Shown piece by piece: positions 1,369 to 57,121 of a DNA stretch of 63,616 nt; positions within the stretch are counted from its first letter, which is position 1, and the number at the start of each line of letters is the position of its first letter. This DNA is from a virus (lineage: Duplodnaviria > Heunggongvirae > Uroviricota > Caudoviricetes), in IMG/VR virus record IMGVR_UViG_2851982317_000002; one strand, given 5' to 3'. The position numbers and the translations under genes are program-made. The notes beneath the pieces are model-generated. The model did not search any database. It had not been told where the DNA came from and saw nothing but the letters and a program-made list of their open reading frames with translations.

Positions 1369-1444
1369 GCCGATATAGCTCAGTTGGTAGAGCAGCGCAT
1401 TCGTAATGCGAAGGTCGTAGGTTCGACTCCTATTATCGGCACCA
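1369..1444 (+). tRNA. thrW: tRNA-Thr (anticodon CGU)
   Basis: 76-nt sequence GCCGATATAGCTCAGTTGGTAGAGCAGCGCATTCGTAATGCGAAGGTCGTAGGTTCGACTCCTATTATCGGCACCA with D-loop AGTTGGTAGAG, anticodon loop TTCGTAA, T-arm GGTTCGACTCC and encoded CCA end. Confidence 0.93.
1399..1444 (+). repeat. attL core: 3' 46 bp of thrW, directly repeated at 47076-47121
   Basis: Exact 46-bp direct repeat ATTCGTAATGCGAAGGTCGTAGGTTCGACTCCTATTATCGGCACCA found at both positions by eye; integrase gene lies immediately adjacent. Confidence 0.75.
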
Positions 1445-1458
1445 TTTAAATCAATAAG

Positions 1459-2622
1459 TTACACATCATTAGTACCTTCCTTATTTTTTGACTGGGACGA
1501 ATTTGGGACCGATGGGTTCAGGATCGAGTCTATTTGCCGTGCGTGTTCGGTAAGGTGATTAGGTGCAAGGTGAGCATATCGACGAACCATTTCGATAGAC
1601 TCCCAGCCTCCCATTTCCTGTAACACTGACAACGGGACTCCGGCTTGAACCAGCCAACTTGCCCAGGTGTGTCTCAAGTCGTGAAATCTGAAATCATCAA
1701 TACCAGCCCGTCTCAGCGCCGCTTTCCAGGCTGTGTTTGCGTCATACCGCATCTTCCTTACTGTTGGCGCTTTCGTTCCGTCTGGTTTGGTACAGCTTTC
1801 CTTGTACACAAATACCCAACGGTGATGATTCCCGATTTGTTTTTTCAAAACGCGACATGCAGTATCATTCAGCGCAACGCCAATTGCGCGGTTTGATTTA
1901 CTCTCTTCCGGGTTTATCCATGCCACCCGGCGCTGCATGTCTATTTGTTGCCATTCAAGGTTGATGATGTTCGAGCGTCTTAAGCCTGTTGCCAGTGCAA
2001 ATTCAACAACAGACTTTAATGGCTCCGGACATTCATCAATCAGCCTTTGTGCTTCATGGGGCTCCAGCCAGCGGATCCGTTTATTCTTTGGTTGAGGCAC
2101 TTTAATAATTGGTGCCTTATCCAGCATTTTCCATTCACGCTCTGCGGCTCTTAGTAGGGCCTTTATAAATGAAAGATGCGTAGCCTTCGTTGCAACGGAC
2201 GCTGGTTTTGGCGTGTATTCTGGAACAGGTTTCCCTTTTTTTCTGCATGCTTCTGCCCTGAGTCTCCAGTTTTCCTCATGACGCCGGTTCGTCATTTTCT
2301 GCATTGCTGAATAAATTTTTGATTCAGTAATGTCTCTTAGTTGCATTCCTGCGAAATGTTGAAGCCAGAATCCGATCCGGCTTTTGTCATCGTCCAGTGA
2401 TTTTTTATGTGCTTTCTCTTCAAGCCACCTGACACACGCTTCCTCGAACGTTATATCAGGTATTTCACCAAGTTTGCTGACCCGCCATGCTTCAGCCTTT
2501 AGCTTGTCATGGAGTTCTGTCGCCTGCCTTTTGTCCTTTGTTCCAAGAGACTGTTTAAATCTTTTACCGTTCGGCAATGTGAAACTGGCGTACCATATTT
2601 CACCTCTGCGGAAGAGTGACAT
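1459..2622 (-). CDS. int: phage integrase, tyrosine recombinase
   Basis: 387-aa ORF ending 15 bp from the tRNA; C-terminal catalytic motifs ([10 protein letters not shown] ... VRRYAHL) typical of the R-H-R-Y tyrosine recombinase family; GAGGA RBS upstream of ATG. Confidence 0.9.
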
Positions 2623-6125: not shown

Positions 6126-6818
6126 TTAATTGTGTCGCTTAAGGGTTTGTGACTGGCTGATTAAGACCTTTCCAAAGACCATAAACCGGTGTTCATTTTC
6201 GCTGGTAATTCCCCATTCACGGTAAATCTGGTTATCAGAAATCACCAGTAGTTTGTCAGGTATCATTTGCAGTCGTTTGACATAAATTTTATCATCAAAA
6301 CCAAATACATAGATACCATCTCCATCAAACTGATTGATACTGACATCAACGAAGATGAGATCTCCTGGCTCAATGGTTGGACACATACTGTCCCCACGAA
6401 CGTTGATAACTTTAATGTGATTGGCTGGCCGTCCGCCAAACATCGATACAGCATTATCAGTTCTGTATTCAATGGCATGAATCACATCAATGACATCACC
6501 GCCCTGGATAAGGCCATTTCCCGCACTGGCACTGACATCCAGCATTTCAATACGGAATACATCCTTCACCTGCGCAACATCCTCACTAATACTGTTTTTA
6601 CATACAGTATTACTTTTGACGTCTGAGGTAAAGAGATCTGCAATATCAACACCTAAGCTCCTGGCAATATTACTCAGGGCTTGTTCAGTGAATTGTTTCT
6701 GCTTACCTGTTTCCAGGCGTGAGATATTCGCCGCATCCACTCCTATTGCTTCAGCGAGATCGGCGATTTTCATGTTCTTCGCCTGGCGAAGTTGTCTGAC
6801 TCGGTTTCCTATGTTCAT
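6126..6818 (-). CDS. CI-like phage repressor (HTH_XRE N-terminus + S24 LexA-like peptidase C-terminus)
   Basis: 230 aa; N-terminal HTH (VRQLRQAKNMKIADLAEAIGVDAANISRLETGK) and C-terminal autocleavage-type domain with GDSM and KRL motifs; divergent from the cro-like gene. Confidence 0.85.
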   Translation of the reverse strand: MNIGNRVRQLRQAKNMKIADLAEAIGVDAANISRLETGKQKQFTEQALSNIARSLGVDIADLFTSDVKSNTVCKNSISEDVAQVKDVFRIEMLDVSASAGNGLIQGGDVIDVIHAIEYRTDNAVSMFGGRPANHIKVINVRGDSMCPTIEPGDLIFVDVSINQFDGDGIYVFGFDDKIYVKRLQMIPDKLLVISDNQIYREWGITSENEHRFMVFGKVLISQSQTLKRHN

Positions 6819-9008: not shown

Positions 9009-9497
9009 ATGAGTCTGTTAAATGACGTTCAGAAATTCATTGAAGCTCATCCGGGGTGTACTTCCGGAGACATTGCAGATGCTTTTGCTGGTTACTCACG
9101 GCAGCGCGTTCTGCAGTCAGCAAGCAAGTTACGTCAGAGTGGGCGTGTGGCTCACCGTTGTGAAGGGGATACACGCAGACATTTCCCGCGCCTGACTGAG
9201 AGAGCGCAGGAGCCGGAACCACAACCAGTTCGTGAAACCAGACCTGTGCGCAATTTCTATGTCGGCACTAACGACCCCCGGGTGATTTTGTGCCTGACCC
9301 GCCAGGCTGAAGAACTGGAGTCCAGGGGCTTATACCGTCGTGCTGCAACGGTGTGGATGGCGGCATTCCGTGAAAGCCACTCCCAGCCAGAACGAAATAA
9401 TTTTCTGGCGCGTCGTGAACGGTGTTTACGGAAAAGCAACAAGCGGGCTGCATCAGGTGAAGAGTGGTATCTGTCAGGGAATTACGTGGGGGCTTAA
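9009..9497 (+). CDS. PerC-like regulator / hypothetical phage protein
   Basis: ATG at 9009 six nt after AGGGGG; C-terminal GLYRRAATVWMAAF resembles the PerC/Pch signature as I recall it. Confidence 0.45.
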   Translation: MSLLNDVQKFIEAHPGCTSGDIADAFAGYSRQRVLQSASKLRQSGRVAHRCEGDTRRHFPRLTERAQEPEPQPVRETRPVRNFYVGTNDPRVILCLTRQAEELESRGLYRRAATVWMAAFRESHSQPERNNFLARRERCLRKSNKRAASGEEWYLSGNYVGA

Positions 9498-10150
9498 TGA
9501 GTAATAAATATTGCCGGGCGCTGGTGGAGCTGCGGAACAAACCAGCCCATGAACTGAAGGAAGTGGGCGATCAGTGGCGCACGCCGGATAACATTTTCTG
9601 GGGAATTAACACCCTGTTTGGTCCGTTTGTTCTGGATCTGTTCACTGACGGTGATAACGCCAAATGTGCCGCGTATTACACGGCGGAAGACAACGCGCTG
9701 GCACATGACTGGTCAGAACGTCTTGCGGAGCTTAAAGGTGCTGCCTTTGGTAATCCCCCATACAGCCGCGCCAGTCAGCATGAGGGGCAATACATCACCG
9801 GCATGCGTTACATCATGAAGCATGCCAGTGCCATGCGTGATAAAGGCGGTCGCTATGTTTTCCTGATCAAAGCTGCCACCAGCGAAGTGTGGTGGCCGGA
9901 AGATGCAGATCATATTGCTTTTATTCGCGGGCGTATTGGTTTTGAACTGCCTGCCTGGTTTATCCCGAAGGATGAGAAGCAGGTGCCGACAGGCGCTTTC
10001 TTCGCTGGTGCTATTGCTGTTTTCGACAAGACCTGGAAGGGACCGGCAATCAGCTACATCGGGCGCGATGAACTTGAGGCATGTGGTGAGGCCTTTCTGG
10101 CGCAGGTTCGCCAGCAGGCGGAAAAACTGGTCAGGGAGATGGCTGCATGA
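9497..10150 (+). CDS. phage DNA N6-adenine methyltransferase (Dam-like)
   Basis: NPPY catalytic motif (AFGNPPYS); ATG at 9497 overlaps the upstream stop (TAATG). Confidence 0.8.
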   Translation: MSNKYCRALVELRNKPAHELKEVGDQWRTPDNIFWGINTLFGPFVLDLFTDGDNAKCAAYYTAEDNALAHDWSERLAELKGAAFGNPPYSRASQHEGQYITGMRYIMKHASAMRDKGGRYVFLIKAATSEVWWPEDADHIAFIRGRIGFELPAWFIPKDEKQVPTGAFFAGAIAVFDKTWKGPAISYIGRDELEACGEAFLAQVRQQAEKLVREMAA

Positions 10151-12702: not shown

Positions 12703-13074
12703 ATGCGTGATATTCAAATGGTTCTTGAACGTTGGGGGGCATGGGCGGCTAATAATCATGAGGATGTGACCTGGTCGTCCATTGCTGCCGGTTTTAAGGG
12801 ATTACTTCCTTCAAAAGTAAAATCCCGCCCGCAATGTTGTGACGATGACGCGATGATCATTTGCGGGTGCATGGCCCGTCTGAAAAAGAACAACAGCGAT
12901 TTGCACGATTTATTAGTAGATTATTATGTAGGTGGTATGACGTTTATGGCGCTTGCCCGTAAACATGGGCGTTCTGATTGCTGGGTTGGGCGCTTATTGC
13001 AAAAGGCAGAAGGCATCATTGAAGGTATGTTGATAATGTTAGAAATAGAATTGGAAATGGACTCAAATATCTAG
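12703..13074 (+). CDS. late-gene antiterminator Q (Q82/QuuD-like family)
   Basis: ATG at 12703 six nt after GGAGG; N-terminus [24 protein letters not shown] as I recall for QuuD-type Q proteins; positioned just before the late/lysis region. Confidence 0.75.
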
Positions 13075-13246: not shown

Positions 13247-14698
13247 TTATTTTATTTTGCTTACTATATTTGTAATAAGTGGGTCAAATTTCTCATCAAT
13301 AATTTCAATATATTTTTTTATTGCTAAAGTTCTAATTACTTCCTCCTCACATTCTGCTTCTTTAGCAATTGCTTGAGTGTAATTGTGATGATCACTAATC
13401 CCTTCCTTTTTTATTAACCAATCAAAATCAATATGATACTCCTTGTAGAGGAATTTTTTTACTTCCTCATGTTGAAATACTTCTACTTCTGGTGGCCTAT
13501 TGCCAGGGAAAGAAAATAAATCATCTTTAATGTTTTCTCCAACATCTGCATCTCTTACGGCAATAACATTAAGGCCTGCTTTCTTGAATACCTCGACTGC
13601 TTGTCGGACTGCATCTTTATCTCCAATATCAGTGATTTGAATGGATTTAAGAATGTCTCTCCGCTTTGCTCTAATTACTTCACTAAGTAAAACTTTTGCA
13701 AACTGGTCTTCTACGCAAATATGCAGCCCTTTAAACTGCCCATCAGACAGTATTGATCTCACATGAGTTGTTGAAATTCCATCTTTGATATAGACACCAG
13801 TCTGATCTCTAATAAGTAATTTTCGTGCATCAGGAGGTAAAGCATTTAATATCACACTTGAGTGTGTTGATAATATTATTTGATGTTTTCTACGTTGACA
13901 TACTTCCATTAAATATTTTGCAAATTCATACTGTGCGCTTTCATGAAGAGATGTTTCTGGTTCTTCTAGTACGAAAAGACTTTGCTCTGGAGCTGTTTCA
14001 AGCATATCAACCGTATAAAGAACTCTTCCTTCGCCAAACCCCATGTTATTTTCAGAATAAGAATACCCAAGTCTTTCAACAATACCAATTTCTGAACGAC
14101 GTGCTCTATGAGAAATTCCTTGGAATGCGATATCATCATATGGATGACCTATTATTTTTGCCATCTTCAATATTACTGAATGGTCGACGCTTCTTCTCTC
14201 TGTTAAATCAAAGTCTTTACCGCCATAAACACTTATATCTCTACGTTCTACTTTTGGAATATAGACAGTAAAACCAATGTAAAAACAGTGTCTTTCTGGT
14301 TGTCTTTTATATCCAGACCAAGAAGACTTTATGCGAGTGACAGTCACATCTTGTGTTTTCGTTGAATCATTTGTTTCATATTTATAAATGACACTGGCGT
14401 CATTATCGAAAGGGGCTGGATCGGCTTTAGATACAGGAAAAAAATCTTTAATATATAATCTCTTATATTCACGGGCTGTAACTGGTTTTTTATATGCGCA
14501 TATTGCTAACTGCCCAAGAGTGCTTTTCCCAGCGCCGTTTAGCCCTGATATTGCAGTTACCGGAAAATTTATATTTAATGTTAGTTTTTTTATTCCTCGA
14601 AATCCATTTATCTCTAGACTTTTAATTACGGAGCCAAAGTTTGAGTATCTATTTTTATCAAAGTACATGCATTTTAGTATATTTTTTATGTCTGACAT
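13247..14698 (-). CDS. OLD-family ABC-type ATPase with C-terminal TOPRIM-like region (candidate defence nuclease)
   Basis: 483 aa; Walker A GLNGAGKST, Walker B/D-loop LFVLEEPETSLH, H-loop ILSTHS; C-terminal CVED and VRDADVG motifs compatible with TOPRIM; AT-rich, opposite strand to flanking phage genes. Confidence 0.7.
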   Translation of the reverse strand: MSDIKNILKCMYFDKNRYSNFGSVIKSLEINGFRGIKKLTLNINFPVTAISGLNGAGKSTLGQLAICAYKKPVTAREYKRLYIKDFFPVSKADPAPFDNDASVIYKYETNDSTKTQDVTVTRIKSSWSGYKRQPERHCFYIGFTVYIPKVERRDISVYGGKDFDLTERRSVDHSVILKMAKIIGHPYDDIAFQGISHRARRSEIGIVERLGYSYSENNMGFGEGRVLYTVDMLETAPEQSLFVLEEPETSLHESAQYEFAKYLMEVCQRRKHQIILSTHSSVILNALPPDARKLLIRDQTGVYIKDGISTTHVRSILSDGQFKGLHICVEDQFAKVLLSEVIRAKRRDILKSIQITDIGDKDAVRQAVEVFKKAGLNVIAVRDADVGENIKDDLFSFPGNRPPEVEVFQHEEVKKFLYKEYHIDFDWLIKKEGISDHHNYTQAIAKEAECEEEVIRTLAIKKYIEIIDEKFDPLITNIVSKIK

Positions 14699-14963
14699 TT
14701 TTTATCTTTCCTGATATGAATGAGAGTTATCTTTAGAAAAACAATAAATTTATAACATTTAGAGATGTATTCATCAATGATTAGGTAAATATCGTGCATT
14801 TGTTGTTTTAAAATCAACCAAGAATGATTTTTATAATTATGTCAATTGCCTTATTATCAATATGGTAATGTTTTCTCAATCTAATTATTGGGGGGGATAT
14901 ATTATTTACAATCGTAAATAATCAGATATGCTCTCAAGAGTGGTTACTTCGCCACACAACTTA

Positions 14964-14989
14964 AACCCGCCGTCGAGCGGGTTTTTTTG
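14964..14989 (+). terminator. rho-independent terminator (possible tR'-like late terminator)
   Basis: ACCCGC-(CGTCGA)-GCGGGT hairpin followed by TTTTTTT. Confidence 0.6.
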
Positions 14990-15454: not shown

Positions 15455-16507
15455 ATGAAAAATACTGTAAAAATAAACAGTGTTGATTTAATCAACGCTG
15501 ATTGCCTGCATTTTATTCAGTCCCTGCCTGATGATTCCATTGACCTGATTGTTACCGATCCGCCTTACTTCAAGGTGAAACCCAACGGTTGGGACAATCA
15601 GTGGAAAGGGGACGAAGATTACCTTAAGTGGCTGGACCACTGTCTGGCCCAGTTCTGGCGGGTGTTGAAACCTGCCGGAAGCCTTTACCTGTTCTGTGGG
15701 CATCGCCTGGCATCTGATATTGAGATCATGATGCGTGAACGTTTCAACGTGCTTAACCATATCATCTGGGCGAAGCCGTCCGGACGTTGGAATGGGTGTA
15801 ATAAAGAAAGTCTGCGCGCATATTTTCCTGCCACAGAGCGCGTTCTGTTTGCTGAACATTACCAGGGGCCATATCGCGGCAAAAGTGACGGCTATGCGGC
15901 AAAAGAAAGGGAACTCAAACAGCACATAATGGCACCGCTGATATCGTATTTCAGGGATGCTCGTGCCGAACTGGGTATAACGGCAAAACAAATTGCCGAA
16001 GCCACAGGTAAGAAAAATATGGTTTCCCACTGGTTTGGTGCCAGTCAGTGGCAGTTGCCGAATGAGGCTGACTATCGGAAGTTACAGGCACTGTTTTCCC
16101 GTATAGCGGCAGAGAAGTTTCAGGAACAACAACTGGAACAACCACACCACCAGCTGGTGGCATCTTATGATTCACTGAATCGCAAATATTCTGAATTGCT
16201 GGATGAGTTTAAATCTCTCCGGCGCTATTTCTCCGTATCAGTCTCCGTGCCTTATACCGATGTCTGGATGCATAAACCCGTTCAGTTCTACCCGGGTAAA
16301 CATCCGTGTGAGAAACCGGCGGATATGCTCAGGCAAATAATCAATGCCAGTAGTCGACCTGGTGATCTGGTTGCTGATTTTTTTATGGGATCCGGTTCCA
16401 CAATAAAAGCAGCAATGGCGCTGGGGCGTCGGGCCTTAGGTGTTGAGCTTGAGTCAGAGCGGTTTAACCAGACAGTGAAAGAGATAAACGAGCTGGTGGG
16501 GAAATAA
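15455..16507 (+). CDS. DNA methyltransferase (DPPY-motif amino-methyltransferase, N6A/N4C class)
   Basis: 350 aa; catalytic DPPY (LIVTDPPYF) near the N-terminus and AdoMet-binding FxGxG (DFFMGSGST) near the C-terminus. Confidence 0.8.
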
Positions 16508-16574
16508 TCTGGTGGCCACGTCAGGTGGCCTTTTTATTTCCATTACACAGCACCCGCATCTGCGAGGTGGGGTT

Positions 16575-16790
16575 ATGAAATCCATGGATAAGTTAACAAC
16601 GGGTGTCGCCTATGGCACCTCAGCAGGTAGTGCCGGGTACTGGTTTTTACAGTTGCTCGATAAAGTCACGCCCTCACAGTGGGCGGCAATAGGTGTGCTG
16701 GGTAGTCTGGTATTTGGCCTGCTGACGTACCTGACAAACCTTTATTTCAAGATTAAAGAAGATAAGCGCAAGGCTGCGAGAGGTGAATAA
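16575..16790 (+). CDS. holin (lambda S-like, dual-start MKSM)
   Basis: 71 aa from the ATG at 16575; transmembrane segments and charged C-terminus ([13 protein letters not shown]); as I recall for DLP12-type holins; stop overlaps the endolysin start (TAATG). Confidence 0.85.
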
Positions 16791-17287
16791 TGCCTCCATC
16801 ATTACGAAAAGCAGTTGCTGCTGCTATTGGTGGCGGAGCAATTGCTATAGCATCAGTGTTAATCACTGGCCCAAGTGGTGACGATGGCCTGGAAGGTGTC
16901 AGCTACATACCATACAAAGATATCGTTGGCGTATGGACTGTATGTCACGGACACACCGGAAAAGACATCATGCTCGGTAAAACGTATACCGAAGCAGAAT
17001 GCAAAGCCCTCCTGAATAAAGACCTTGCCACGGTTGCCAGACAAATTAACCCGTACATCAAAGTCGATATACCGGAAACAACGCGCGGCGCTCTTTACTC
17101 GTTCGTCTACAACGTGGGTGCTGGCAATTTCAGAACATCGACGCTTCTTCGCAAAATAAACCAGGGCGATATCAAAGGCGCATGTGACCAGCTACGTCGC
17201 TGGATATACGCTGGCGGTAAGCAATGGAAAGGCCTGATGACTCGTCGTGAGATTGAGCGTGAAGTCTGTTTGTGGGGGCAACAATGA
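16790..17287 (+). CDS. endolysin (lysozyme, probable SAR type)
   Basis: 165 aa; hydrophobic N-terminal SAR-like segment ([18 protein letters not shown]) followed by a lysozyme-like domain; immediately after the holin. Confidence 0.88.
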
Positions 17288-17751
17288 GCAGAGTAACCGC
17301 GATTATCTCCGCTCTGGTTATCTGCATCATCGTCTGCCTGTCGTGGGCGGTCAATCATTACCGTGATAACGCCATCGCCTACAAAGAACAGCGAGATAAA
17401 AAAGTCAGTGAGCTGAAGCAGGCGACCGCCACCATTACTGACATGCAGCAGCGCCAGCGTTCTGCTGATGCACTCGATGCTAAATACACGAAGGAGTTAG
17501 CTGATGCGAAAGCTGAAAATGATGCTCTTCGGCGCAAGCTTGATAATGGTGGTCGGGTGTTCGTCAAAGGAAAATGCCCTGTGCCATCCTCAGCCGAAAC
17601 CTCCAGCGCCTCCGGCATGGGCAATGATGCCACCGTCGAACTCTCTCCAGTTGCTGGACGAAACGTTCTCGGTATCCGGGACGGAATTATCCGCGACCAA
17701 ACAGCACTGAGAACGCTTCAGGAATACATCAGGACGCAATGCCTTCGATGA
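17284..17751 (+). CDS. rz: i-spanin Rz
   Basis: ATG at 17284 ([17 protein letters not shown]...), N-terminal TM helix then coiled-coil periplasmic domain; overlaps the endolysin stop. Confidence 0.8.
17504..17710 (+). CDS. rz1: o-spanin Rz1 (lipoprotein embedded in the +1 frame of Rz)
   Basis: 68 aa with lipobox LIMVVGC and proline-rich mature region ([16 protein letters not shown]); AAGGAG RBS 7 nt upstream; entirely within Rz. Confidence 0.75.
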
Positions 17752-18032
17752 TAGCGATAATTTTACTCATCATCCTTCACATCTGGCTCTGTAGACAGGA
17801 TGGTGATCACTTCTGGCATGAATCCAGATTAAACATCTCATTGCTGATGCTTGATATTGAGCATCTTGCGCGCGGTAAGGGGCTGCGTTGAGATAAGAGC
17901 CAGTCATTACAAATACCAGGATTTAGCCTCGCATTCGCGGGGCTTTTTATTGCCATTACAAAAGCCACTCCCTACAGAGTGGCTTTGATAATGGCTTATA
18001 CCCTACACGGGATAGCTTAACTGATATCCCTT

Positions 18033-18248
18033 TTAACGGATAAAGGTATTCAAGCCTGACACATCATGCGCTGTATCGTCGCCGTATTCCCGTATTAACA
18101 GAGACCGTAGCCCGACGGGGAACTCCTTCTGCGCGAGTGTGCGGGAATAATCAAAAACGATGCACACCGGGTTTTTACCGCGTTTATGGTTCGCGGGTTT
18201 GTCTCTCATGCTCGCCAGTCCTGTGCGGGGGTGGAAGAAACAGGACAC
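18033..18248 (-). CDS. hypothetical protein
   Basis: Only ORF of any size between Rz and cos, on the opposite strand (as bor is in lambda, but no similarity seen); weak RBS. Confidence 0.2.
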   Translation of the reverse strand: MSCFFHPRTGLASMRDKPANHKRGKNPVCIVFDYSRTLAQKEFPVGLRSLLIREYGDDTAHDVSGLNTFIR

Positions 18249-18374
18249 TTACACAGATTCTTGTGGGCACGATGCTATGCCTTTCTGGATTATCCCGATG
18301 CCATTCATGCAAGGCGTTGTATCAGACGTTCGTCAGAGCTGTCAGGCTGACGGGTCCTCCCGGTGGGGTGGCCT

Positions 18375-18440
18375 GCCACGGGGCGGGAGCGTCGCGGAAA
18401 AAGGCTAGTTTTTGCATTTTTATCGGCCACCATCATCTTT
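18375..18440. other. cos site (cosN region) upstream of the small terminase gene
   Basis: GGGGCGGGAGCGTCGCGGAAAAAGGCTAGTTTTTGCATTTTTATCGG resembles, as I recall, the lambda cos sequence GGGCGGCGACCTCGCGGGTTTTCGCTATTTATG; located directly 5' of terS. Confidence 0.5.
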
Positions 18441-18566
18441 GCATCTTATTGATTATTAATGGTTATTTGTTTTTTGTATGTCGAATTGAGCGGTTTTTGT
18501 TCGACATCGAACGCGTTTTCTTAAAGTTGTTCGCACGATGCATGTTTAAAGCTCTCCGGAGGAAAT

Positions 18567-19058
18567 ATGGATCATGAGTTGAAAAACTTGGTGCTGAATA
18601 TTAATCAACTGGCGGCTTTATCTGGTCTGCACCGCCAGACTGTCGTGGCAAGACTGAAAAACATTCGTCCCGCTGGTGGACATGACAAACTCAAGCTATA
18701 CCGGTTGACCGATATTCTGACTGAATTTATGGGGTTACCACCGCCGGTTGCTGAGGGCGAAATGGATCCACATGAACGCAAAGCCTGGTATCAGTCTGAA
18801 CGTGAGCGTCTTAAGTTCGAACAGGAAACGGCACAACTCATTCCGGCCAGTGATGTCAGACGGGAGTTTGCCATCTGGGCAAAAGCGGTCGTGCAGGTGC
18901 TGGAGACATTACCGGATATTCTGGAACGTGACTGCGGCCTGCAGCCTGCCGCTGTGAGCCGTGTTCAGTCCATTATTGATGATCTGCGCGATCAGATAGC
19001 CCTGCGGGTGACCGAAGCAGGTGCGGATGATGAGGAGGAATTACAGCAGGAGGAGTAA
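18567..19058 (+). CDS. terminase small subunit (Nu1-like)
   Basis: 163 aa; N-terminal HTH (LNINQLAALSGLHRQTVVARLKNIRP) like lambda Nu1; GGAGG RBS; stop overlaps terL start. Confidence 0.75.
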   Translation: MDHELKNLVLNINQLAALSGLHRQTVVARLKNIRPAGGHDKLKLYRLTDILTEFMGLPPPVAEGEMDPHERKAWYQSERERLKFEQETAQLIPASDVRREFAIWAKAVVQVLETLPDILERDCGLQPAAVSRVQSIIDDLRDQIALRVTEAGADDEEELQQEE

Positions 19059-21160
19059 TGCTGAATCAGGAAACCGCAAAGGCAGCACGAACCGATTCAG
19101 GTTATATCCTTCGCGCACCGAGACGAATGCGGGTTGCTGATGCCGTTGCTCAGTATATGCGGGTGCCCATGGGGGCCGGGAATTCAGTCCCGTGGGATCC
19201 GCTGGTGGCACCGTATGTTATTGAGCCGATGAACTGCCTGGCCTCGCGTGAATACGACGCAGTGATATTTGTTGGCCCGGCACGAACTGGCAAGACTATC
19301 GGCCTGATTGACGGCTGGGTGATTTACAATGTGATTTGCGATCCTGCTGATATGCTGATCATTCAGATGACGGAGGAAAAAGCCCGCGAACACTCCAAAA
19401 AACGACTTGCCAGAACGTTTCGCGTCAGCCCGGAAGTGGTCAGTCGCCTGAGTCCGAACAAAAATGACAACAACGTTTATGACAGAACATTCCTTGCTGG
19501 CAACTACCTGAAAATCGGCTGGCCGTCAGTCAATATCATGTCCTCATCAGATTATAAATGCGTGGCGCTGACGGATTATGACCGTTTTCCGGAAGATATT
19601 GATGGCGAGGGGGATGCCTTCTCTCTTGCCTCAAAACGTACCACCACATTTATGTCCAGTGGTATGACGCTGGTGGAGAGTTCCCCCGGCAGGGATGTGA
19701 AGGATGTGAAATGGCGACGGACTTCACCGCATGAGGCTCCACCAACCACGGGGATACTGTCGCTCTATAACCGTGGCGATCGCCGTCGCTGGTACTGGCC
19801 CTGTCCACACTGTGGTGAGTATTTTCAGCCCTGCGGCGATGTGGTTGCTGGTTTCCGTGATATTGCCGATCCCGTGCTGGCAAGTGAGGCGGCTTATATT
19901 CAGTGTCCTTCCTGTTCAGGACGGATTATGCCTGAACAAAAACGTGAGCTGAACGGACGTGGGGTCTGGTTGCGGGATGGTGAATCCATCAATGCGGATG
20001 GCAGTCGTTATGGTGATCCCCGACGCTCACGTATTGCGTCATTCTGGATGGAGGGTCCGGCAGCTGCTTACCAGACACTCTCGCAACTCGTTTACAAACT
20101 GCTTACTGCAGAACAGGAATACGAGACAACCGGAAGTGAAGAAACACTCAAGACGGTTATCAATACCGACTGGGGATTACCTTATCTTCCCCGTGCCAGC
20201 ATGGAGCAACGAAAAAGTGAACTGCTTGAGCAGCGGGCAGAGCCAGTTCCTTCCCGCAGTGTGCCGGATGGCGTTAATTTCCTGGTGGCGACAGTTGATG
20301 TGCAGGCGGGACGTCATCGCCGTTTTGTGGTTCAGGTAACGGGCTATGGCAGCCGTGGCGAACGCTGGATTATTGATCGTTACAACATCACGCAGTCATT
20401 GCGCGGTGACAGCGACGGGGAGAGCCAGCGAATTGATCCGGCCAGCTATCCGGAAGACTGGGATGTCCTGCTGACGGATGTTTTTCATAAAAGCTGGCCG
20501 CTGGCCTCCGATCCTTCTCAACAAATGCGACTGATGGCAATGGCGGTGGACTCCGGCGGTGAAGACGGGGTCACTGATAATGCCTATAAATTCTGGCGTC
20601 GTTGCCGTCGTGATGGCCTTGGTAAACGTATTTACCTGTTTAAGGGCGACAGCATCCGGCGCGCAAAACTGATCACCCGTACATTCCCTGATAACACCGG
20701 ACGAACGGGCCGACGGGCGCAGGCCGCAGGTGATGTGCCGCTCTGGCTTCTTCAGACGGATGCCCTGAAAGATCGGGTGAATAACGCGTTATGGCGTGAC
20801 TCTCCAGGTCCCGGCTATGTGCATTTCCCTGACTGGCTGGGGAGCTGGTTTTACGACGAACTGACGTATGAAGAGCGGAGTAGTGACGGGAAATGGAGTA
20901 AGCCGGGTCGCGGTGCCAACGAAGCTTTTGACCTGATGGTGTATGCCGAGGCTCTGGTCATTCTGCATGGATACGAAAAGATCCGCTGGCCGGATGCACC
21001 GGAGTGGGCGAGCCGGGAAACCTGGCTGGAGTGTGTCCCGGACAGTACCGAACCGTCACCCTCACCGGAACCGGTATCCACGCCTGTTAAAAAACAAAAA
21101 CGGAAGAAAACAGTAACTGACGATGTTAACCCCTGGCTGACTTCCGGAGGATGGTTATGA
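19058..21160 (+). CDS. terminase large subunit (lambda gpA family)
   Basis: 700 aa; Walker A VGPARTGKT; CxxC zinc-ribbon-like WPCPHCGEYF; size and position as for lambda A. Confidence 0.9.
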   Translation: MLNQETAKAARTDSGYILRAPRRMRVADAVAQYMRVPMGAGNSVPWDPLVAPYVIEPMNCLASREYDAVIFVGPARTGKTIGLIDGWVIYNVICDPADMLIIQMTEEKAREHSKKRLARTFRVSPEVVSRLSPNKNDNNVYDRTFLAGNYLKIGWPSVNIMSSSDYKCVALTDYDRFPEDIDGEGDAFSLASKRTTTFMSSGMTLVESSPGRDVKDVKWRRTSPHEAPPTTGILSLYNRGDRRRWYWPCPHCGEYFQPCGDVVAGFRDIADPVLASEAAYIQCPSCSGRIMPEQKRELNGRGVWLRDGESINADGSRYGDPRRSRIASFWMEGPAAAYQTLSQLVYKLLTAEQEYETTGSEETLKTVINTDWGLPYLPRASMEQRKSELLEQRAEPVPSRSVPDGVNFLVATVDVQAGRHRRFVVQVTGYGSRGERWIIDRYNITQSLRGDSDGESQRIDPASYPEDWDVLLTDVFHKSWPLASDPSQQMRLMAMAVDSGGEDGVTDNAYKFWRRCRRDGLGKRIYLFKGDSIRRAKLITRTFPDNTGRTGRRAQAAGDVPLWLLQTDALKDRVNNALWRDSPGPGYVHFPDWLGSWFYDELTYEERSSDGKWSKPGRGANEAFDLMVYAEALVILHGYEKIRWPDAPEWASRETWLECVPDSTEPSPSPEPVSTPVKKQKRKKTVTDDVNPWLTSGGWL

Positions 21161-40700: not shown

Positions 40701-41117
40701 TACGGAACCAAATCCACGAATAACACCGGGGCGCATACCCATAGTATTAGCGGGACTGCAAATAGTGCCGGTGCGCACCAACACAAGAGTTCCGGTGCAT
40801 TTGGTGGCACGAACACGAGCATTTTCCCTAATGGTTATACCGCGATTTCAAATCCAAGCGCGGGGATTATGAGCACAACAAGCGGTAGTGGCCAGACTCG
40901 TAATGCAGGGAAGACATCATCAGATGGTGCTCATACCCACTCGCTGTCCGGCACTGCTGCAAGCGAAGGCGCACATGCACATACTGTCGGTATTGGTGCT
41001 CATACGCACTCCGTTGCGATTGGCTCACATGGACACACCATCACCGTTAACGCTGCTGGTAACGCGGAAAACACCGTCAAAAACATCGCATTTAACTATA
41101 TTGTGAGGCTTGCATAA
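37716..41117 (+). CDS. stf: side tail fiber protein
   Basis: ATG at 37716 ([26 protein letters not shown]...) matches the lambda Stf N-terminus as I recall it; long Ala/Ser/Thr-rich repeat region (about 38100-39100) and C-terminal GAHxHS/HxH repeats. Confidence 0.85.
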
Positions 41118-41701
41118 TGGTATTCAGAATGAGTGAACAACCACGGACCATAACAATTTATAATCTGCTGGCCGGAACTAATGAATTTATTGGTGAAGGT
41201 GATGCATATATTCCGCCTCATACAGGTCTGCCAGCAAACAGTACCGATATTGCACCGCCAGATATTCCGGCAGGCTTCGTGGCTGTTTTCAACAGTGATG
41301 AGGCATCGTGGCATCTCGTTGAAGATCATCGGGGTAAAACGGTTTATGACGTGGCTTCCGGCGACGCGTTATTTATTTCTGAACTCGGTCCGTTACCGGA
41401 AAATGTTACCTGGTTATCGCCGGGAGGGGAATATCAGAAGTGGAACGGCACAGCCTGGGTGAAGGATACGGAAGCAGAAAAACTGTTCCGGATCCGGGAG
41501 GCGGAAGAAACAAAAAACAGCCTGATGCAGGTAGCCAGTGAGCATATAGCGCCGCTTCAGGATGCTGTAGATCTGGAGATCGCAACGGAGGAAGAAAACT
41601 CGTTGCTGGAAGCCTGGAAAAAGTATCGGGTGTTGCTGAACCGTGTTGATACATCAACTGCACCGGATATTGAGTGGCCTGCTGTCCCTGTTATGGAGTA
41701 A
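41117..41701 (+). CDS. tfa: tail fiber assembly protein
   Basis: 194 aa, near-identical by memory to lambda Tfa ([59 protein letters not shown]...). Confidence 0.9.
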
Positions 41702-42238: not shown

Positions 42239-45200
42239 ATGGAACCCATATCAATTACAGTGGCAACTTATGTAGCAACTAAACTTATTGATCAATTCAT
42301 CTCTCAAGAAGGATATGGTTGTATTAAGAAAGCATTATTCCCCCAAAAAAGATATGTGGATAGATTATATCAACTAATTGAAGAGACGGCAATTGAGTTT
42401 GAAGAAATATATCCAGTAGAAAGTGGAGCAATACCATTTTATCATTCCGAACCATTGTTTGAGATGTTGAATGAGCACATCTTTTTTAAAGAGTTCCCTG
42501 ACAAAGAGATATTATTAGACAAGTTCAAAGAATATCCAAGTATCACTCCCCCAACTCAACAACAACTCAGCCTTTTTTATGAGATGTTATCATTAAAAAT
42601 CAATAATTGTTCGAAGTTAAAAAAGCTACATATCGAAGAAACGTATAAAGAAAAAATATTCGATATTAATGAAGAGCTCATTCAAGTCAAACTTATTTTA
42701 CGGTCTATAGATGAGAAACTAACTTTTCACTTAAGTGATGATTGGTTAAATGAAAAAAATAGTCAAGCAATAGCTGACTTGGGAGGTCGATACACACCCG
42801 AACTCAACGTAAAGCTAGAAATAGCAGAGATATTTGATGGCCTCGGTAGAACTAATGATTTTTCTAAAATATTTTATTCGCATATAGATAGCTTTCTGGT
42901 CGCTGGAAAGAAATTACATAGTTGCGATGTAATTTCCTCAGAATTATTTGAAATAAACCAGTCCTTAAAAGAAATTTCTGATATATATCAGGAGATTAAT
43001 TTTTCTAAATTAGATGAAATCCCTATAAATAAATTTAATAACTATGTTTCTAGCTGCCAGACAGCTATTGGCGGAGCGGTATCAATATTGTGGGAACTCC
43101 GAGAAAAGTCAGAGCAAGTAGGTGAAACCAAGCATTACAGTGATAAGTATTCATCTACTCTGCGAATGCTTCGGGAATTTGACTATGCGTGCAATGAATT
43201 ACGTATATTCATTAATTCAACAACAGTGAAGTTGGCTAACAACCCATTCTTACTTCTCGAAGGAAAAGCAGGAATTGGTAAGTCTCATTTACTGGCTGAT
43301 GTGATTAAAAATCGAATTGCTTCTGGGTATCCTTCACTACTCATACTAGGGCAACAACTTACTTCAGATGAATCTCCATGGTCACAAATCTTCAAGAGAT
43401 TACAGCTTAAAATCACTTCTCGTGAATTCCTAGAAAAACTGAATTTATATGGCAAAAAAACAGGAAAAAGAGTCTTAGTTTTTATTGATGCTATTAATGA
43501 AGGTAATGGAAATAAATTCTGGAATGACAATATTAACAGTTTTGTCGATGAAATCAGATGCTTTGAATGGCTTGGTCTGATAATGTCAGTCAGAACAACA
43601 TATAGAAATGTAACAATTTCACATGAGAATGTTGTGCGAAATAATTTTGAAATTCATGAACATATTGGATTCCAGAACGTTGAGTTGGAAGCGGTTAGTC
43701 TATTTTATGATTATTACAATATTGAGAGGCCTTCATCTCCTAACCTTAATCCAGAGTTTAAAAATCCTCTATTTCTTAAGTTATTGTGTGAAGGCATTAA
43801 GAAAAATGGTTTAACCAAAGTGCCTGTTGGATTTAATGGGATTTCAAATATTTTTAACTTTTTAGTTGAAGGGGTAAATAAATCATTAGCATCGCCAAAA
43901 AAATATGCATTCGATCCCAGTTTTCCTCTTGTTAAAGATGCTCTCAATGAAATCATAAAATTCAAATTAGAGATTGGTCGTAATAGTATTTCACTTAAAG
44001 ATGCTCACTCAGTGGTTCAATCTGTAGTTAATGATTATGTTGCTGATAAAACCTTCCTCAGCGCCTTGATTGACGAAGGATTATTGACTAAAGGCATAGT
44101 GAGAAATGATGATAATTCTACTGAGGAAGTAGTTTATGTGGCTTTTGAAAGGTTTGATGATCATTTAACTGTTAATTTTTTATTAAATGATGTTGAAAAT
44201 ATCGAAAGTGAATTTAAGCCTGATGGTCGTCTGAAAAAATATTTTCATGATGAATGTGATTTTTATATAAAATCGGGAATAGTAGAGGCGTTGTCTATTC
44301 AATTGCCAGAAAGGTATGAAAAAGAGCTTTATGAATTTCTGCCGGAGTTCAGCAATAATCTTAAATTACTAGAAGCCTTTATTGATAGCTTGATATGGCG
44401 CGATATTAAGGCTATTGATTTCGAAAAAATTAGACCTTTCATCAATGAACATGTTTTTAAATTTAAAGATAGTTTTGATCATTTCCTCGAGGCAGTGATC
44501 TCTATTTCAGGTTTAGTTGGCCATCCCTTTAATGCTAATTTCTTGCATGATTGGCTAAAAGATTATTCTTTGGCAAATCGAGATTCGTTTTGGACTACAG
44601 AACTTAAATATAAATATAGTGAAGACTCAGCATTTAGGCATCTAATCGATTGGGCATGGGCCAGAACAGATAAAAGCTTTGTTTCGGATGAGTCAATCGA
44701 GCTAGTTGCAACTAGTTTATGCTGGTTTTTAACTTCTAGTAACCGAGAACTTCGAGATTGCTCAACTAAGGCTTTAGTGAGTTTACTCGAGCCAAGAATT
44801 CCTGTATTGAGAAAAATAATTGATAAGTTTTATGGTGTAAATGATCCTTACGTTTGGGAAAGAATATTTGCAGTTGCATTAGGCTGTACATTGCGAACTG
44901 ATAATATTAAAGAACTAAAATATTTAGCCGAAACTGTTTACCAAAAGGTATTTTGTTCTAAGTATGTGTATCCAAATATATTACTTAGAGATTATGCTAG
45001 AGAGATTATTGAATTTGCTAATCATCTTGGATTGGAACTTGAAAGCATTGAATTATCCAAGACTAGACCACCCTACAACAGCATTTGGCCTGACAAGATT
45101 CCTTCAAAAGAGGAACTAGAGTCCCTTTATGATAAAGAACCTTATCGGGAACTCTGGAGCTCTATTATGGAAGATGGTGACTTTTCACGATATACTATTG

Positions 45201-46693
45201 GAACAAATTATAATCATTCTGATTGGTCTGGTTGCAAGTTTAATGAAACCCCTGTTGACCGTAAGCAAGTTTTTAAAACTTTCAAATGTAAACTAACTGA
45301 TCAACAAAAAGACTTGTATGATGCCACAGATCCTTTCATTTATGATGATAAATGCGAAGGAATTAAATTTGGTCGTGTGGTCGGTAGAAAAGCACAGGAA
45401 GAAATAAAGGCGAGCAAGAAATTATTTAAGAATTCATTGTCATACGATCTGTTAAGTGAGTTTGAAAATGAAATAGAGCCATACCTGGATCATAATAATA
45501 ATCTGCTGGAAACTGATAAACACTTTGATCTTCGACTAGCTCAACAATTTATATTCAATCGTGTTATAGAGCTTGGTTGGGATCCGGAGAAGCATGGTAA
45601 TTTTGACCAACAAATAGGAACTGGACGTGGACGTAGAGAGGCATTCCAAGAACGGATTGGTAAAAAATACCAATGGATTGCTTATTATGAATACATGGCA
45701 AGGCTAGCCGATAATTTTACTCGTTTTGAAGGTTATGGTGACGAACGAAAGGAAAATCCATACCAAGGGCCATGGGAGCCTTACGTAAGAGATATAGATC
45801 CCACTATCTTACTTAAAGAAACTGGAACGAAAAAAATAAGCAATAAAGAAATGTGGTGGCTTAATGATGAAGTGTTTGATTGGACTTGCTCTAATGAAGA
45901 CTGGGTTAAAAGTTCTACTACTATAACTAATTCATATGCTTTTATTGAAGTTAAAGATGATAATGGTGATGAATGGATAGTATTAGAAAGTCATCCATCA
46001 TGGAAAGAACCAAAAATTATTGGAAACGATGATTGGGGGCACCCACGAAAAGAGGTTTGGTATCAGATCAGAAGTTATATCGTTAAAGTTGAAGAATTTG
46101 AAAATTTTAGATGTTGGGCAATAGCTCAAGACTTTATGGGCAGGTGGATGCCGGAATGTACTGATAGATACCAATTATTTAATAGGGAGTACTATTGGTC
46201 CGAAGCATTTAAGTCTTTTAAATCAGATTATTATGGTGGATCTGACTGGACTTCGGTAACAGACCGGGAGTCTGGAGCTAAGATAGCTGATGTTAGTGTC
46301 ACTTCGATTAATTATTTGTGGGAAGAGGAGTTCGACAAATCAAAAATAGAAACTTTGAATTTTTTGAAGCCTAGTAACTTAATCTTTGAAAAGATGGGAT
46401 TAAAAAGTGGGGAAGTAGAGGGTAGCTTCAATGATGAAAATGGAACTATGGTTTGCTTTGCAGCTGAAGCTGTATATGCTTCAAAGCCGCATCTACTTGT
46501 TAAAAAAGAACCATTTTTAACAATGTTAAGGGACAATGGTTTTGAAATCGTTTGGACATTATTAGGTGAAAAGGGCGTTATAGGGGGCTCACTCATATCA
46601 AGTCATCATTATGGTCGACAGGAGTTTAGTGGAGCATTTTATTATGAAGACAGTCAGCTAACAGGAAGTCATAAAACTAGCTTTACGAGATAA
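42239..46693 (+). CDS. NACHT-like STAND NTPase, 1484 aa (candidate single-gene anti-phage defence protein)
   Basis: Single uninterrupted ORF; NACHT-type Walker A GKAGIGKS (aa 342-349; nt 43262-43285) and Walker B-like VLVFIDAINEG (aa 412-422); about 340 aa N-terminal and 850 aa C-terminal regions without recognisable motifs; AT-rich, located between tfa and attR. Confidence 0.75.
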   Translation: MEPISITVATYVATKLIDQFISQEGYGCIKKALFPQKRYVDRLYQLIEETAIEFEEIYPVESGAIPFYHSEPLFEMLNEHIFFKEFPDKEILLDKFKEYPSITPPTQQQLSLFYEMLSLKINNCSKLKKLHIEETYKEKIFDINEELIQVKLILRSIDEKLTFHLSDDWLNEKNSQAIADLGGRYTPELNVKLEIAEIFDGLGRTNDFSKIFYSHIDSFLVAGKKLHSCDVISSELFEINQSLKEISDIYQEINFSKLDEIPINKFNNYVSSCQTAIGGAVSILWELREKSEQVGETKHYSDKYSSTLRMLREFDYACNELRIFINSTTVKLANNPFLLLEGKAGIGKSHLLADVIKNRIASGYPSLLILGQQLTSDESPWSQIFKRLQLKITSREFLEKLNLYGKKTGKRVLVFIDAINEGNGNKFWNDNINSFVDEIRCFEWLGLIMSVRTTYRNVTISHENVVRNNFEIHEHIGFQNVELEAVSLFYDYYNIERPSSPNLNPEFKNPLFLKLLCEGIKKNGLTKVPVGFNGISNIFNFLVEGVNKSLASPKKYAFDPSFPLVKDALNEIIKFKLEIGRNSISLKDAHSVVQSVVNDYVADKTFLSALIDEGLLTKGIVRNDDNSTEEVVYVAFERFDDHLTVNFLLNDVENIESEFKPDGRLKKYFHDECDFYIKSGIVEALSIQLPERYEKELYEFLPEFSNNLKLLEAFIDSLIWRDIKAIDFEKIRPFINEHVFKFKDSFDHFLEAVISISGLVGHPFNANFLHDWLKDYSLANRDSFWTTELKYKYSEDSAFRHLIDWAWARTDKSFVSDESIELVATSLCWFLTSSNRELRDCSTKALVSLLEPRIPVLRKIIDKFYGVNDPYVWERIFAVALGCTLRTDNIKELKYLAETVYQKVFCSKYVYPNILLRDYAREIIEFANHLGLELESIELSKTRPPYNSIWPDKIPSKEELESLYDKEPYRELWSSIMEDGDFSRYTIGTNYNHSDWSGCKFNETPVDRKQVFKTFKCKLTDQQKDLYDATDPFIYDDKCEGIKFGRVVGRKAQEEIKASKKLFKNSLSYDLLSEFENEIEPYLDHNNNLLETDKHFDLRLAQQFIFNRVIELGWDPEKHGNFDQQIGTGRGRREAFQERIGKKYQWIAYYEYMARLADNFTRFEGYGDERKENPYQGPWEPYVRDIDPTILLKETGTKKISNKEMWWLNDEVFDWTCSNEDWVKSSTTITNSYAFIEVKDDNGDEWIVLESHPSWKEPKIIGNDDWGHPRKEVWYQIRSYIVKVEEFENFRCWAIAQDFMGRWMPECTDRYQLFNREYYWSEAFKSFKSDYYGGSDWTSVTDRESGAKIADVSVTSINYLWEEEFDKSKIETLNFLKPSNLIFEKMGLKSGEVEGSFNDENGTMVCFAAEAVYASKPHLLVKKEPFLTMLRDNGFEIVWTLLGEKGVIGGSLISSHHYGRQEFSGAFYYEDSQLTGSHKTSFTR

Positions 46694-47075: not shown

Positions 47076-47121
47076 AATTCGTAATGCGAAGGTCGTAGGT
47101 TCGACTCCTATTATCGGCACC
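47076..47121 (+). repeat. attR core: 46-bp direct repeat of the thrW 3' end (tRNA fragment, not an intact tRNA)
   Basis: Identical to 1399-1444; lacks the tRNA 5' half. Confidence 0.75.
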
Positions 47122-47731
47122 ATTAAGAAAATCAATAACTTAGCTTAGCTTCTCTAAGAAATTGTATCTTCTGTTATCACTTACAAACGCCTATACGTTG
47201 TTATGGGCTTTGGTAGTGTAACACGTATGGGCGAGTAGTTCCCAGGCTCAACCTCGTAACAAGTTCCTTTGAAGCTGGAAGACGTGCCACCGTCTCTAAA
47301 CCTTCTACCAAAACTCTTAGCAAGATGTTCCACACCTGGCGCGGTGTCCAATGATGCTACACGTCGAGATGACGTTGCAGAGGATAAACAGGCTAAATGA
47401 TGGGAAGAGTAGTTTTAAGTGCATAGTGGATTAAAGCCCACCTCTTCAAAACCTAACTTGATCGGGAAAGAATCAAGCTCTAGCACGGTTTCGTCCACCG
47501 GAGTACAACGGGTGCCTGATAAGAGAAGAACTGCTAAGACTTCATAGCTTTTGTGAAAAAGCCCTTTTTAGTGGATACGCCTACGGCGCTTATTTTTTGG
47601 GGTAGCCCATCAAAGGCGCTTTATGGCTCCTATTGTCTTGAAAATGTATCTTTACTTGTATTGTGTTTTATGCGTAGTCTCCCTGTGTAGTATGTAACTT
47701 GTTAATTTTCATATGAATACAGAGGCACACG

Positions 47732-47896
47732 ATGAAAAACATTGCAGCTATCAAACGTAATAACCGCAAGATTCACGCTCGTAAGTTCCTGTCTACGCCA
47801 GAAGGAAAAGCCTGGCTAGAGCGTAAACAGAGAGAGAACGAAGAAAGAAAACTCCTTAGTGAGTTGAAAGTAAGCGACTCGTCAGAACCGTATTGA
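47732..47896 (+). CDS. small hypothetical protein, 3' end altered by IS66 insertion
   Basis: ATG at 47732 with AGAGG RBS; reading frame runs into the IS left end at 47870 (last residues now VSDSSEPY); joining the two target-duplication copies would restore ...SELKWLKD-stop. Confidence 0.4.
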   Translation: MKNIAAIKRNNRKIHARKFLSTPEGKAWLERKQRENEERKLLSELKVSDSSEPY

Positions 47897-47899
47897 TAT

Positions 47900-49471: not shown

Positions 49472-49490
49472 ATCCTCACTTTACAACGGG

Positions 49491-49838
49491 TTATATGCGG
49501 ATTCCAGCGCGTTCCGTTCGTTTCGGGTGCTTCCAGTTGATACCTTCAAGAAGCATGGATAACTGAGCCGGAGTAAGGTGCACCTTGCCGTCACGGGTGA
49601 CTGGCCAGACGAAGCGGCCCCGCTCCAGGCGTTTGGTGAAGAGGCACAGTCCGTCACTGTCAGCCCACAACACTTTTATCTGGTCACCCCGGCGTCCGCG
49701 GAAGATGAACAGGTGTCCGGAGAACGGGTCATCCTTCAGGACGTTCTGAACTTTTGATGCCAGGCCGTTAAAGCCATTTCGCATATCGGTGATACCTGCA
49801 ACCAGCCAGATACGCGAACCTGCAGGGAGAGATATCAT
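49491..49838 (-). CDS. tnpB: IS66 Orf2 (TnpB)
   Basis: 115 aa, MISLPAGSRIWLVAGITDMRNGFNGLA... characteristic of IS66 Orf2. Confidence 0.8.
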   Translation of the reverse strand: MISLPAGSRIWLVAGITDMRNGFNGLASKVQNVLKDDPFSGHLFIFRGRRGDQIKVLWADSDGLCLFTKRLERGRFVWPVTRDGKVHLTPAQLSMLLEGINWKHPKRTERAGIRI

Positions 49839-50515: not shown

Positions 50516-50657
50516 TATTTTTGTAGAGCCGGAGGAAACAGACCAGACGGTTTAAATGAGCCGGTTACAGTTGAAATGGCTTAAGGATTGAATCACCAGT
50601 AGGCGCATAACACATCCAGCGATCAAAGATGTGTTTATGCGCCTGATAGTGAAATTA

Positions 50658-57117: not shown

Positions 57118-57121
57118 TCTT

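Follow-up and report, generated by a model that had tools for sequence, protein, structure and literature searches.

The lysis cassette described here belongs to a lambdoid prophage contained in a 63,616-nt stretch of DNA from a Caudoviricetes virus record (IMG/VR IMGVR_UViG_2851982317_000002). We refer to this whole stretch as the window. The window is identical (100%) to positions 2179525-2243140, reverse strand, of the Escherichia coli E2528-C1 chromosome (NZ_CP035870.1), an isolate from human stool; gene names and pseudogene flags used below are those of the RefSeq (PGAP) annotation of that genome. Along the window, proA is followed by a tRNA-Thr(CGT) gene (1369-1444), the lambdoid prophage, a second island, and then paoD.

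The cassette is complete and occupies positions 16575-17751 on the plus strand. It comprises the genes of a holin (S), an endolysin (R), and two spanins (Rz and Rz1), with overlapping stops and starts between neighbors: the start codon of R overlaps the TAA stop codon of S (ATAATG), the start codon of Rz overlaps the stop codon of R (ATGA), and Rz1 is embedded in Rz (Table 1). A preliminary description of this DNA had called the cassette complete, with a dual-start holin, a signal-anchor-release (SAR) endolysin, and an embedded Rz1, and every feature it described is present in the sequence. It gave the cassette as 17284-17751, which are the exact limits of Rz with Rz1 inside it; the cassette as a whole extends upstream to the start of S. 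In sequence comparisons, each of the four proteins exceeds the threshold of its family by a wide margin, and the corresponding PHROG holin, endolysin, and spanin families are also matched; an NCBIfam scan of the four proteins and of the short open reading frame (ORF) downstream of Rz returned no family above the cut-off.

Table 1. Features of the lysis cassette, its flanks, and the surrounding prophage, in order of position in the window
Feature	Position	Strand	Evidence or remark
attL, 3' 46 bases of tRNA-Thr(CGT) plus 2 bases	1399..1446	+	left copy of a perfect 48-bp direct repeat
Integrase	1459-2577	-	PF00589, E=3e-48; intact
CI-like repressor	6126-6818		helix-turn-helix (HTH) and Peptidase_S24, E=6e-19
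Q-family antiterminator, presumed activator of late (lysis and morphogenesis) genes	12703..13074	+	PF06530, E=1.6e-51; PGAP "antiterminator Q family protein"
Terminator-like hairpin with T-run, between DNA methylase and holin genes	16514..16530	+	equivalent terminator annotated in Ayreon
Tandem Shine-Dalgarno-like GAGGT, GGGGT for the two holin starts	16564..16573	+	sequence; phage 434 annotation
S71 antiholin (antipinholin), 71 aa, starts MKSM	16575..16790	+	PF04971; identity to phage 434 and phage 21 proteins; PGAP name essD
S68 pinholin (class II holin), 68 aa, begins at Met4 of S71	16584..16790	+	in-frame ATG
R, SAR endolysin, GH24 T4-type lysozyme, 165 aa	16790..17287	+	PF00959; identity to R21
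Rz, i-spanin, 155 aa	17284..17751	+	PF03245, PHROG 13
AAGGAG ribosome-binding site of Rz1, 7 nt before ATG	17491..17496	+	sequence
Rz1, o-spanin lipoprotein, 68 aa, embedded in Rz	17504..17710	+	PF06085, PHROG 3198
50-codon ORF, hydrophobic N-terminus, starts MPSM	17739..17891	+	PHROG 11822 (unknown function)
Strong terminator-like hairpin, 8 pairs (6 GC), T-run, closes the lysis region	17925..17944	+	hairpin scan
GpA-type large terminase	19058-21160
attR	47077..47124	+	right copy of the perfect 48-bp repeat

The holin scores 121 bits (E=2e-35) in PF04971 ("Bacteriophage P21 holin S"), whose cut-off is 26. Its gene has ATG codons at 16575 and 16584 in one frame, with a common stop at 16790, and begins M1-K2-S3-M4-D-K. 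The two in-frame methionines of an MKSM start had been noted in the preliminary description; the spacer between them is Lys-Ser, not Lys alone. This arrangement corresponds to a described dual-start motif, in which a longer antiholin carries an extra positive charge and a shorter product is the holin (PMC9636201). S68 is identical to the holin of phage Ayreon at 68/68 residues. Judged from composition only, the first transmembrane domain (TMD1, residues 8-28) is weakly hydrophobic, with a Kyte-Doolittle (KD) value of 0.55 and 57% Gly/Ala/Ser/Thr, and the second (TMD2, residues 36-56) is hydrophobic (KD 1.57). By family and sequence identity, then, the holin is assigned to the phage-21-type pinholins and not to the lambda-type large-hole holins, and it would therefore act by depolarizing the membrane and freeing an endolysin that has already been exported, not by opening large holes. 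The phage 21 protein S21 forms heptameric pinholes of ~2 nm, too small for passage of lambda R (PMC6116005; PMC9636201); given its 86% identity to S21, S68 would be expected to form pinholes of the same kind.

The endolysin matches the phage lysozyme family PF00959 (E=1.8e-45) and is identical to phage 21 R at 160/165 residues, with residues 1-30 identical throughout. Three structures are matched at E ~1e-109: 3hde (full-length, tethered R21), 3hdf (the released form of R21), and 4zpu (RrrD). The catalytic triad is kept as E35-X8-D44-X5-T50. Near the N-terminus, R6-K7 is followed by a 20-residue segment (residues 8-27) of 65% Gly/Ala/Ser/Thr, which is the hydrophobic N-terminal stretch reported earlier. 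The E-X8-D-X5-T triad and the combination of basic residues with an uncleaved, weakly hydrophobic segment are among the hallmarks of SAR endolysins, for which Sec-dependent export, tethering, and release on depolarization or by a pinholin have been called "the definitive test" (PMC9239132). The 97% identity to R21 suggests that R is likewise exported by Sec, tethered in the membrane, and later released.

Rz matches PF03245 (E=8e-29) and PHROG 13 (E=5e-75). It has an N-terminal transmembrane anchor at residues ~5-23 (KD 2.63), followed by a periplasmic domain, and its Cys98 and Cys153 align with C99 and C152 of lambda Rz, which form homotypic disulfides (PMC6139136). Rz1 starts 220 nt into Rz, i.e., in the +1 frame, and spans 0.47-0.91 of the length of Rz, in agreement with the modal position of embedded o-spanins (PMC6139136). 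The preliminary description was right to place Rz1 wholly within Rz in this frame and behind an AAGGAG of its own. Rz1 matches PF06085 (E=3.8e-21) and, over residues 1-68, PHROG 3198 (E=3.8e-26). Its lipobox, VVGC with Cys19, can be compared with the consensus [LVI][ASTVI][GAS]C (PMC6139136); Ser occupies the +2 position, with no Asp, and Rz1 is accordingly predicted from its lipobox to be a lipoprotein sorted to the outer membrane. Cys27 lies near the position of C29 in lambda Rz1. The mature protein is rich in proline (8 Pro in 50 amino acids), with a core, PKPPAPPAW, whose motif is common to lambda Rz1.

The spanin genes are mosaic. Residues 1-83 of Rz are near-identical to those of lambda, 434, and 21; residues 84-155, together with mature Rz1, represent another allele. 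Since the interacting C-terminal parts of Rz and Rz1 share DNA, they necessarily travel together. A 371-nt probe covering this Rz C-terminal/Rz1 allele and the downstream ORF matched 2119 of 5426 complete E. coli genomes, and in 1594 of the 2119 the match extended over 80% or more of the probe. In phages Ayreon, Kati, PhiR70_1, and vB_EcoS-569R4, Rz1 keeps its start, lipobox, Cys27, and stop, even though Rz of Kati, PhiR70_1, and 569R4 differs by 15-33 nucleotides. Differences in the dual-coding versus the single-coding part of Rz number 2 versus 17, 6 versus 26, and 8 versus 6 in three relatives, a mixed pattern that is confounded by mosaic recombination and on which we place no weight.

The experimental paradigm for pinholin and SAR-endolysin lysis is phage 21 (OL657228). 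The gene order, the overlaps, and the MKSM(DK) dual start are the same as here; S agrees at 61/71 residues, the replacements being conservative, and R has the same SAR segment and catalytic triad. The two cassettes also share near-identical Rz residues 1-83 and an Rz1 embedded in the +1 frame. They differ in the remainder of the spanins, such that Rz is identical at 92/156 positions overall and Rz1 at 29/70, with an Rz1 of 68 amino acids here and 60 in phage 21. The flanks differ as well: upstream, the window has a methylase gene where phage 21 has tRNA genes; downstream, it has the 50-codon plus-strand ORF where phage 21 has bor on the opposite strand.

Another close counterpart is the cassette of Ayreon (MF807953). 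This temperate siphophage forms plaques on E. coli K-12, the host used for its isolation (PMC5764929). The 1.5-kb lysis region has 99.7% DNA identity to Ayreon, the S68, R, Rz, and Rz1 proteins are 100% identical, and the flanking methylase and terminators are the same. Ayreon differs in its integrase, immunity region, Q region, and distal tail fiber, and its record lacks Rz1 and the S71 start. Phage 434 (OL657227) encodes S and R proteins identical to those here at 71/71 and 162/165 residues, respectively. Its record annotates an antiholin S71, a class II holin S68, a SAR endolysin, an i-spanin, and an o-spanin, with one ribosome-binding site each for S71 and S68 at positions corresponding to those in the window. 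DNA similarity to 434 stops at ~17528, where the Rz1 overlap begins; beyond this point, 434 has a lambda-type Rz C-terminus and a 60-amino-acid Rz1, unlike the window. Lambda itself shares the embedded +1 architecture, the N-terminal TMD of Rz with its aligned pair of periplasmic cysteines, and an Rz1 that has a lipobox, only one periplasmic Cys, and a core rich in proline with a PP.PPAW motif. Identity to lambda is 63% for Rz and 46% for Rz1, and mature Rz1 is longer here (50 versus 40 amino acids), with a longer C-terminal tail.

The presence and integrity of the genes, their motifs, and their identity to characterized proteins are direct observations. The sequence hallmarks of all three families (S21-type pinholin, SAR endolysin, and embedded two-component spanin) are found, and we saw no sequence evidence that contradicts a phage-21-type assignment. 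We therefore regard it as very probable that the cassette is of the phage-21 type, i.e., a pinholin, a SAR endolysin, and a two-component spanin carried by a lambdoid prophage at tRNA-Thr and acting in three steps. Such a cassette is already known: its components are among the best-studied phage lysis proteins, and the same cassette is present in a sequenced phage.

The mechanism that we propose is transferred from experiments with phage 21 and lambda, S and R being 86-97% identical to their phage 21 counterparts and Rz/Rz1 being homologous; it follows reviews of phage lysis (PMC6116005, PMC9636201, PMC6139136). Late in the lytic cycle, Q-antiterminated transcription would pass the terminator directly upstream of S and express all four genes. 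Translation of S from its two starts, which are three codons apart, would yield two proteins, the S68 pinholin and the S71 antiholin, with the extra N-terminal Lys of S71 expected to keep TMD1 in the membrane and so to delay triggering. In the meantime, R would be exported by Sec and held inactive, tethered in the inner membrane by its weakly hydrophobic, Gly/Ala-rich SAR segment. At the programmed time, the SAR-like TMD1 of the pinholin would leave the bilayer, and TMD2 would assemble into heptameric pinholes of ~2 nm. Collapse of the proton-motive force through these pinholes would then release the SAR domain of R, which would refold to give active lysozyme (E35/D44/T50) and degrade the murein. 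Finally, Rz in the inner membrane and Rz1 in the outer membrane, joined through their C-termini and by homotypic disulfides, would be freed from the murein meshwork and would fuse the inner and outer membranes, completing lysis.

The two att repeats bound an element of ~45.7 kb. The CI-like repressor has a Ser (GDSM) and a Lys (VKRL) that align with the catalytic dyad of lambda CI, as well as a candidate Ala-Gly close to the lambda cleavage site. In addition to Q and the large terminase, the prophage encodes a divergent Cro-like gene, a lambda-family portal, and a protease-capsid fusion. The att-bounded element is free of PGAP pseudogene flags, and the int, cI, terminase, and tail genes, described earlier as intact, are indeed present and uninterrupted. 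Full-length matches (86-100% identity) were found for 19 of 20 Ayreon packaging, head, and tail proteins. Identity to Ayreon across these genes is 93-100%, except for the small terminase protein TerS (86.5%, aligned over 156/164 residues) and the side tail fiber, of which only the N-terminal 153 amino acids match Ayreon; the side tail fiber gene is itself an intact ORF of 1135 amino acids. The early region of the prophage is 97% identical to the record of phage SfV. The prophage thus looks complete and SOS-inducible as far as its genes can tell, and inducibility, which the preliminary description had argued for, is plausible. The lysis cassette contributes little to that case: an intact cassette alone is weak evidence of inducibility, because the defective prophage DLP12 keeps a near-identical one.

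DLP12 is also the model for a different view of the cassette, namely that it is a retained or domesticated remnant in a prophage unable to finish the lytic cycle, with no role in virion release. The DLP12 cassette of K-12, essD-rrrD-rzpD/rzoD, lends its names to the window, PGAP having transferred essD and rrrD to the holin and endolysin genes, and the endolysin is identical to RrrD (4zpu), which we take to belong to this defective K-12 prophage, at 162/165 residues. Intact lysis genes do persist in defective prophages, as DLP12 illustrates. DLP12 is decayed, however, whereas the cassette in the window sits in an apparently complete, att-bounded prophage. Its perfect 48-bp att repeats, intact int, and CI with an S24 domain, the lack of any pseudogene flag inside the element, the full-length packaging, head, and tail proteins shared with Ayreon, and an early region so close to that of a named phage all speak against decay, and we consider a remnant unlikely. 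A related suggestion accepts that the prophage is complete and holds that its induction is abortive, with its own late proteins triggering its own defense cargo (Avs2 or an ATPase-nuclease); in that case expression of the lysis genes would not lead to a productive burst. The prophage does encode an Avs2, identified by PADLOC at 1750 bits, inside the att-bounded element, and Avs2 is an antiviral STAND NTPase that senses terminase. More broadly, Avs1-4 families recognize the folds of the large terminase subunit or portal (PMC13581612). The suggestion is nonetheless purely hypothetical, and recognition of a GpA-type terminase by Avs2 has no support here. Defense genes are common in prophages, and this type of prophage is found in 71 complete genomes (at least 80% of a 25-kb query), which suggests that it spreads. 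An abortive induction is, in our judgment, improbable.

The remaining alternatives concern single genes of the cassette. On a plain reading of "dual-start holin", S could be a canonical holin of the lambda type, one whose micron-scale holes serve an endolysin of the cytoplasm; like lambda S107/S105, it has a dual start with an extra Lys in the longer form. This is very improbable: S is a PF04971 protein with two TMDs instead of three, its partner is a SAR endolysin, and its identity is 86% to S21 and 100% to 434 S. Pinholes of the S21 size (~2 nm) block lambda R (PMC6116005). We give still less credence, to the point of regarding it as negligible, to the idea that the Rz1 frame is a chance open frame inside Rz and not a gene. 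PGAP and four phage records are without Rz1, and 17.5% of 20,000 codon shuffles of Rz gave a +1 ATG ORF of at least 68 amino acids. Because a frame of this length is common by chance, we dropped length as an argument and relied on homology and motifs. On these grounds the case for a gene is strong: Rz1 has the Pfam match and the full-length PHROG 3198 match given above, an AAGGAG spaced 7 nt from its ATG, a lipobox that fits the consensus and includes Cys19, PPAPPAW shared with lambda Rz1, and Cys27, and the frame, lipobox, and stop are kept in four diverged phages.

Several points weigh against the phage-21-type reading, or at least against its full extent. Expression, timing and triggering, topology changes, membrane fusion, and induction are all things that we infer. 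Compared with the lambda and phage 21 proteins that have been studied, the C-terminal half of Rz and Rz1 show only ~41-59% identity; because of this low identity, the function of Rz/Rz1 rests on family membership and on identity to Ayreon, and it is by sharing the allele of that plaque-forming phage that they would be expected to form a complex and fuse the membranes for lysis. The late promoter was not located with confidence; a 3.5-kb insert separates Q from S, and S is immediately preceded by a terminator. Lastly, the Avs2 of the prophage might react to the prophage's own GpA-type terminase on induction.

The role of Q for the cassette would follow the lambdoid paradigm. Late transcription must read through the hairpin at 16514-16530, presumably by means of Q-modified polymerase. 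The cargo in the ~3.5-kb gap between Q and S consists of an antisense ATPase-nuclease, a small ORF, and a DNA methylase. A consensus scan found a candidate promoter within this gap at 14905-14932 on the plus strand (TTTACA-16-TATGCT; a pattern match only). About 30 nt past the promoter-like site, at 14963-14984, is a strong terminator, with a hairpin AAACCCGC...GCGGGTTT and a T-run. Together, 14905-14984 resembles a pR'/tR' pair, located downstream of the antisense nuclease and not directly after Q; this resemblance, too, is a pattern match only. At the other end of the cassette, a terminator annotated in Ayreon (2953-2998 of its locus) corresponds to ~17952-17997 in the window, near the closing hairpin at 17925-17944 but not over it.

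Rz1 is unannotated in the RefSeq (PGAP) record and in the records of Ayreon, Kati, PhiR70_1, and vB_EcoS-569R4, and the S71 start is likewise omitted from some related phage records. The omission of Rz1 looks like a systematic annotation gap for embedded genes, and a known one. With Rz1 missing from these records, automated checks of whether a lysis cassette is complete would wrongly score this one as incomplete. Together, the complete cassette and the prophage around it make the latter a candidate for an active temperate phage, carried by an isolate from human stool, and its defense cargo (Avs2, the ATPase-nuclease, and two methylases) could move between strains. The scientific weight of the finding is small, as the lysis pathway is the textbook one of phage 21 and the E. 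coli prophage is an ordinary one.

Downstream of the spanin genes, the 50-codon ORF overlaps the 3' end of Rz by 13 nt and precedes the closing terminator. It has no match in Pfam, NCBIfam, or PADLOC. The ORF is open in five genomes, with mostly nonsynonymous substitutions; its coding status is therefore doubtful, and we do not count it as an established member of the cassette. It adjoins the same Rz/Rz1 allele in ~1600 complete E. coli genomes, and in lambda, 21, and 434 the corresponding site is taken by bor, which runs on the opposite strand. That it is a fifth cassette member, e.g., a small membrane protein that modulates pinholin triggering, release of the SAR endolysin, or spanin function, seems to us quite unlikely.

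Between the lysis terminator and the small terminase gene, a region of ~650 bp (17900-18566) contains no convincing gene. A minus-strand ORF at 18033-18248 has no convincing family match in Pfam or PHROG, and the frame annotated in Ayreon as a "putative late gene regulator" (18272-18577) has no family support here from the same two databases. In the window, the Ayreon and mEp460 records have their ends at ~18541/18542. The distance from the cassette to the right end of the virion DNA would therefore be ~0.8 kb, similar to the arrangement in lambda, and 17900-18566 probably holds cos and accessory sites; we treat it as the probably non-coding right end of the virion chromosome, before cos.

Other cargo of the prophage includes genes with predicted roles in defense. 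The antisense ATPase-nuclease between Q and the late genes (13247-14698, minus strand; 483 amino acids; AAA_15/AAA_21; PGAP "ATP-dependent nuclease") has as its best PADLOC match the candidate defense protein HEC-04 (E=3.9e-47), resembles ATPase-Toprim, AriA, and GajA less strongly, and is probably a defense moron in the Q-S cargo site. Avs2 is full length (42239-46693, plus strand; 1484 amino acids) and lies just before attR. Two methyltransferase genes on the plus strand, without an adjacent PGAP-annotated restriction gene, are found at 9497-10150, in the early/nin region, and at 15455-16507 (PF01555, N6_N4_Mtase), immediately before the holin gene; in PADLOC, each of the two matches Type II methyltransferase models (E ~1e-152 to 1e-158). 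An Rfam scan of the whole window found no RNA family in or near the lysis cassette, its only matches being tRNA-Thr and a full-length IS009 (RF02111; 222.7 bits) at 41460-41658 on the plus strand, inside a tail fiber assembly gene (41117-41701).

To the right of the prophage, a second element (~47125-63083) contains an IS66-family element (47900-50515) as well as a series of hypothetical genes, among which those at 54447-55115, 57520-58551, and 58935-60836 have no PADLOC match. The 3' end of tRNA-Thr is present in three copies in the window: the perfect 48-bp copies at 1399-1446 and 47077-47124 and a copy of 21-23 bp at 63061-63083. The third copy adjoins a second tyrosine integrase gene (61641-62918, minus strand). 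The three copies and the second integrase therefore indicate two elements in tandem at tRNA-Thr.

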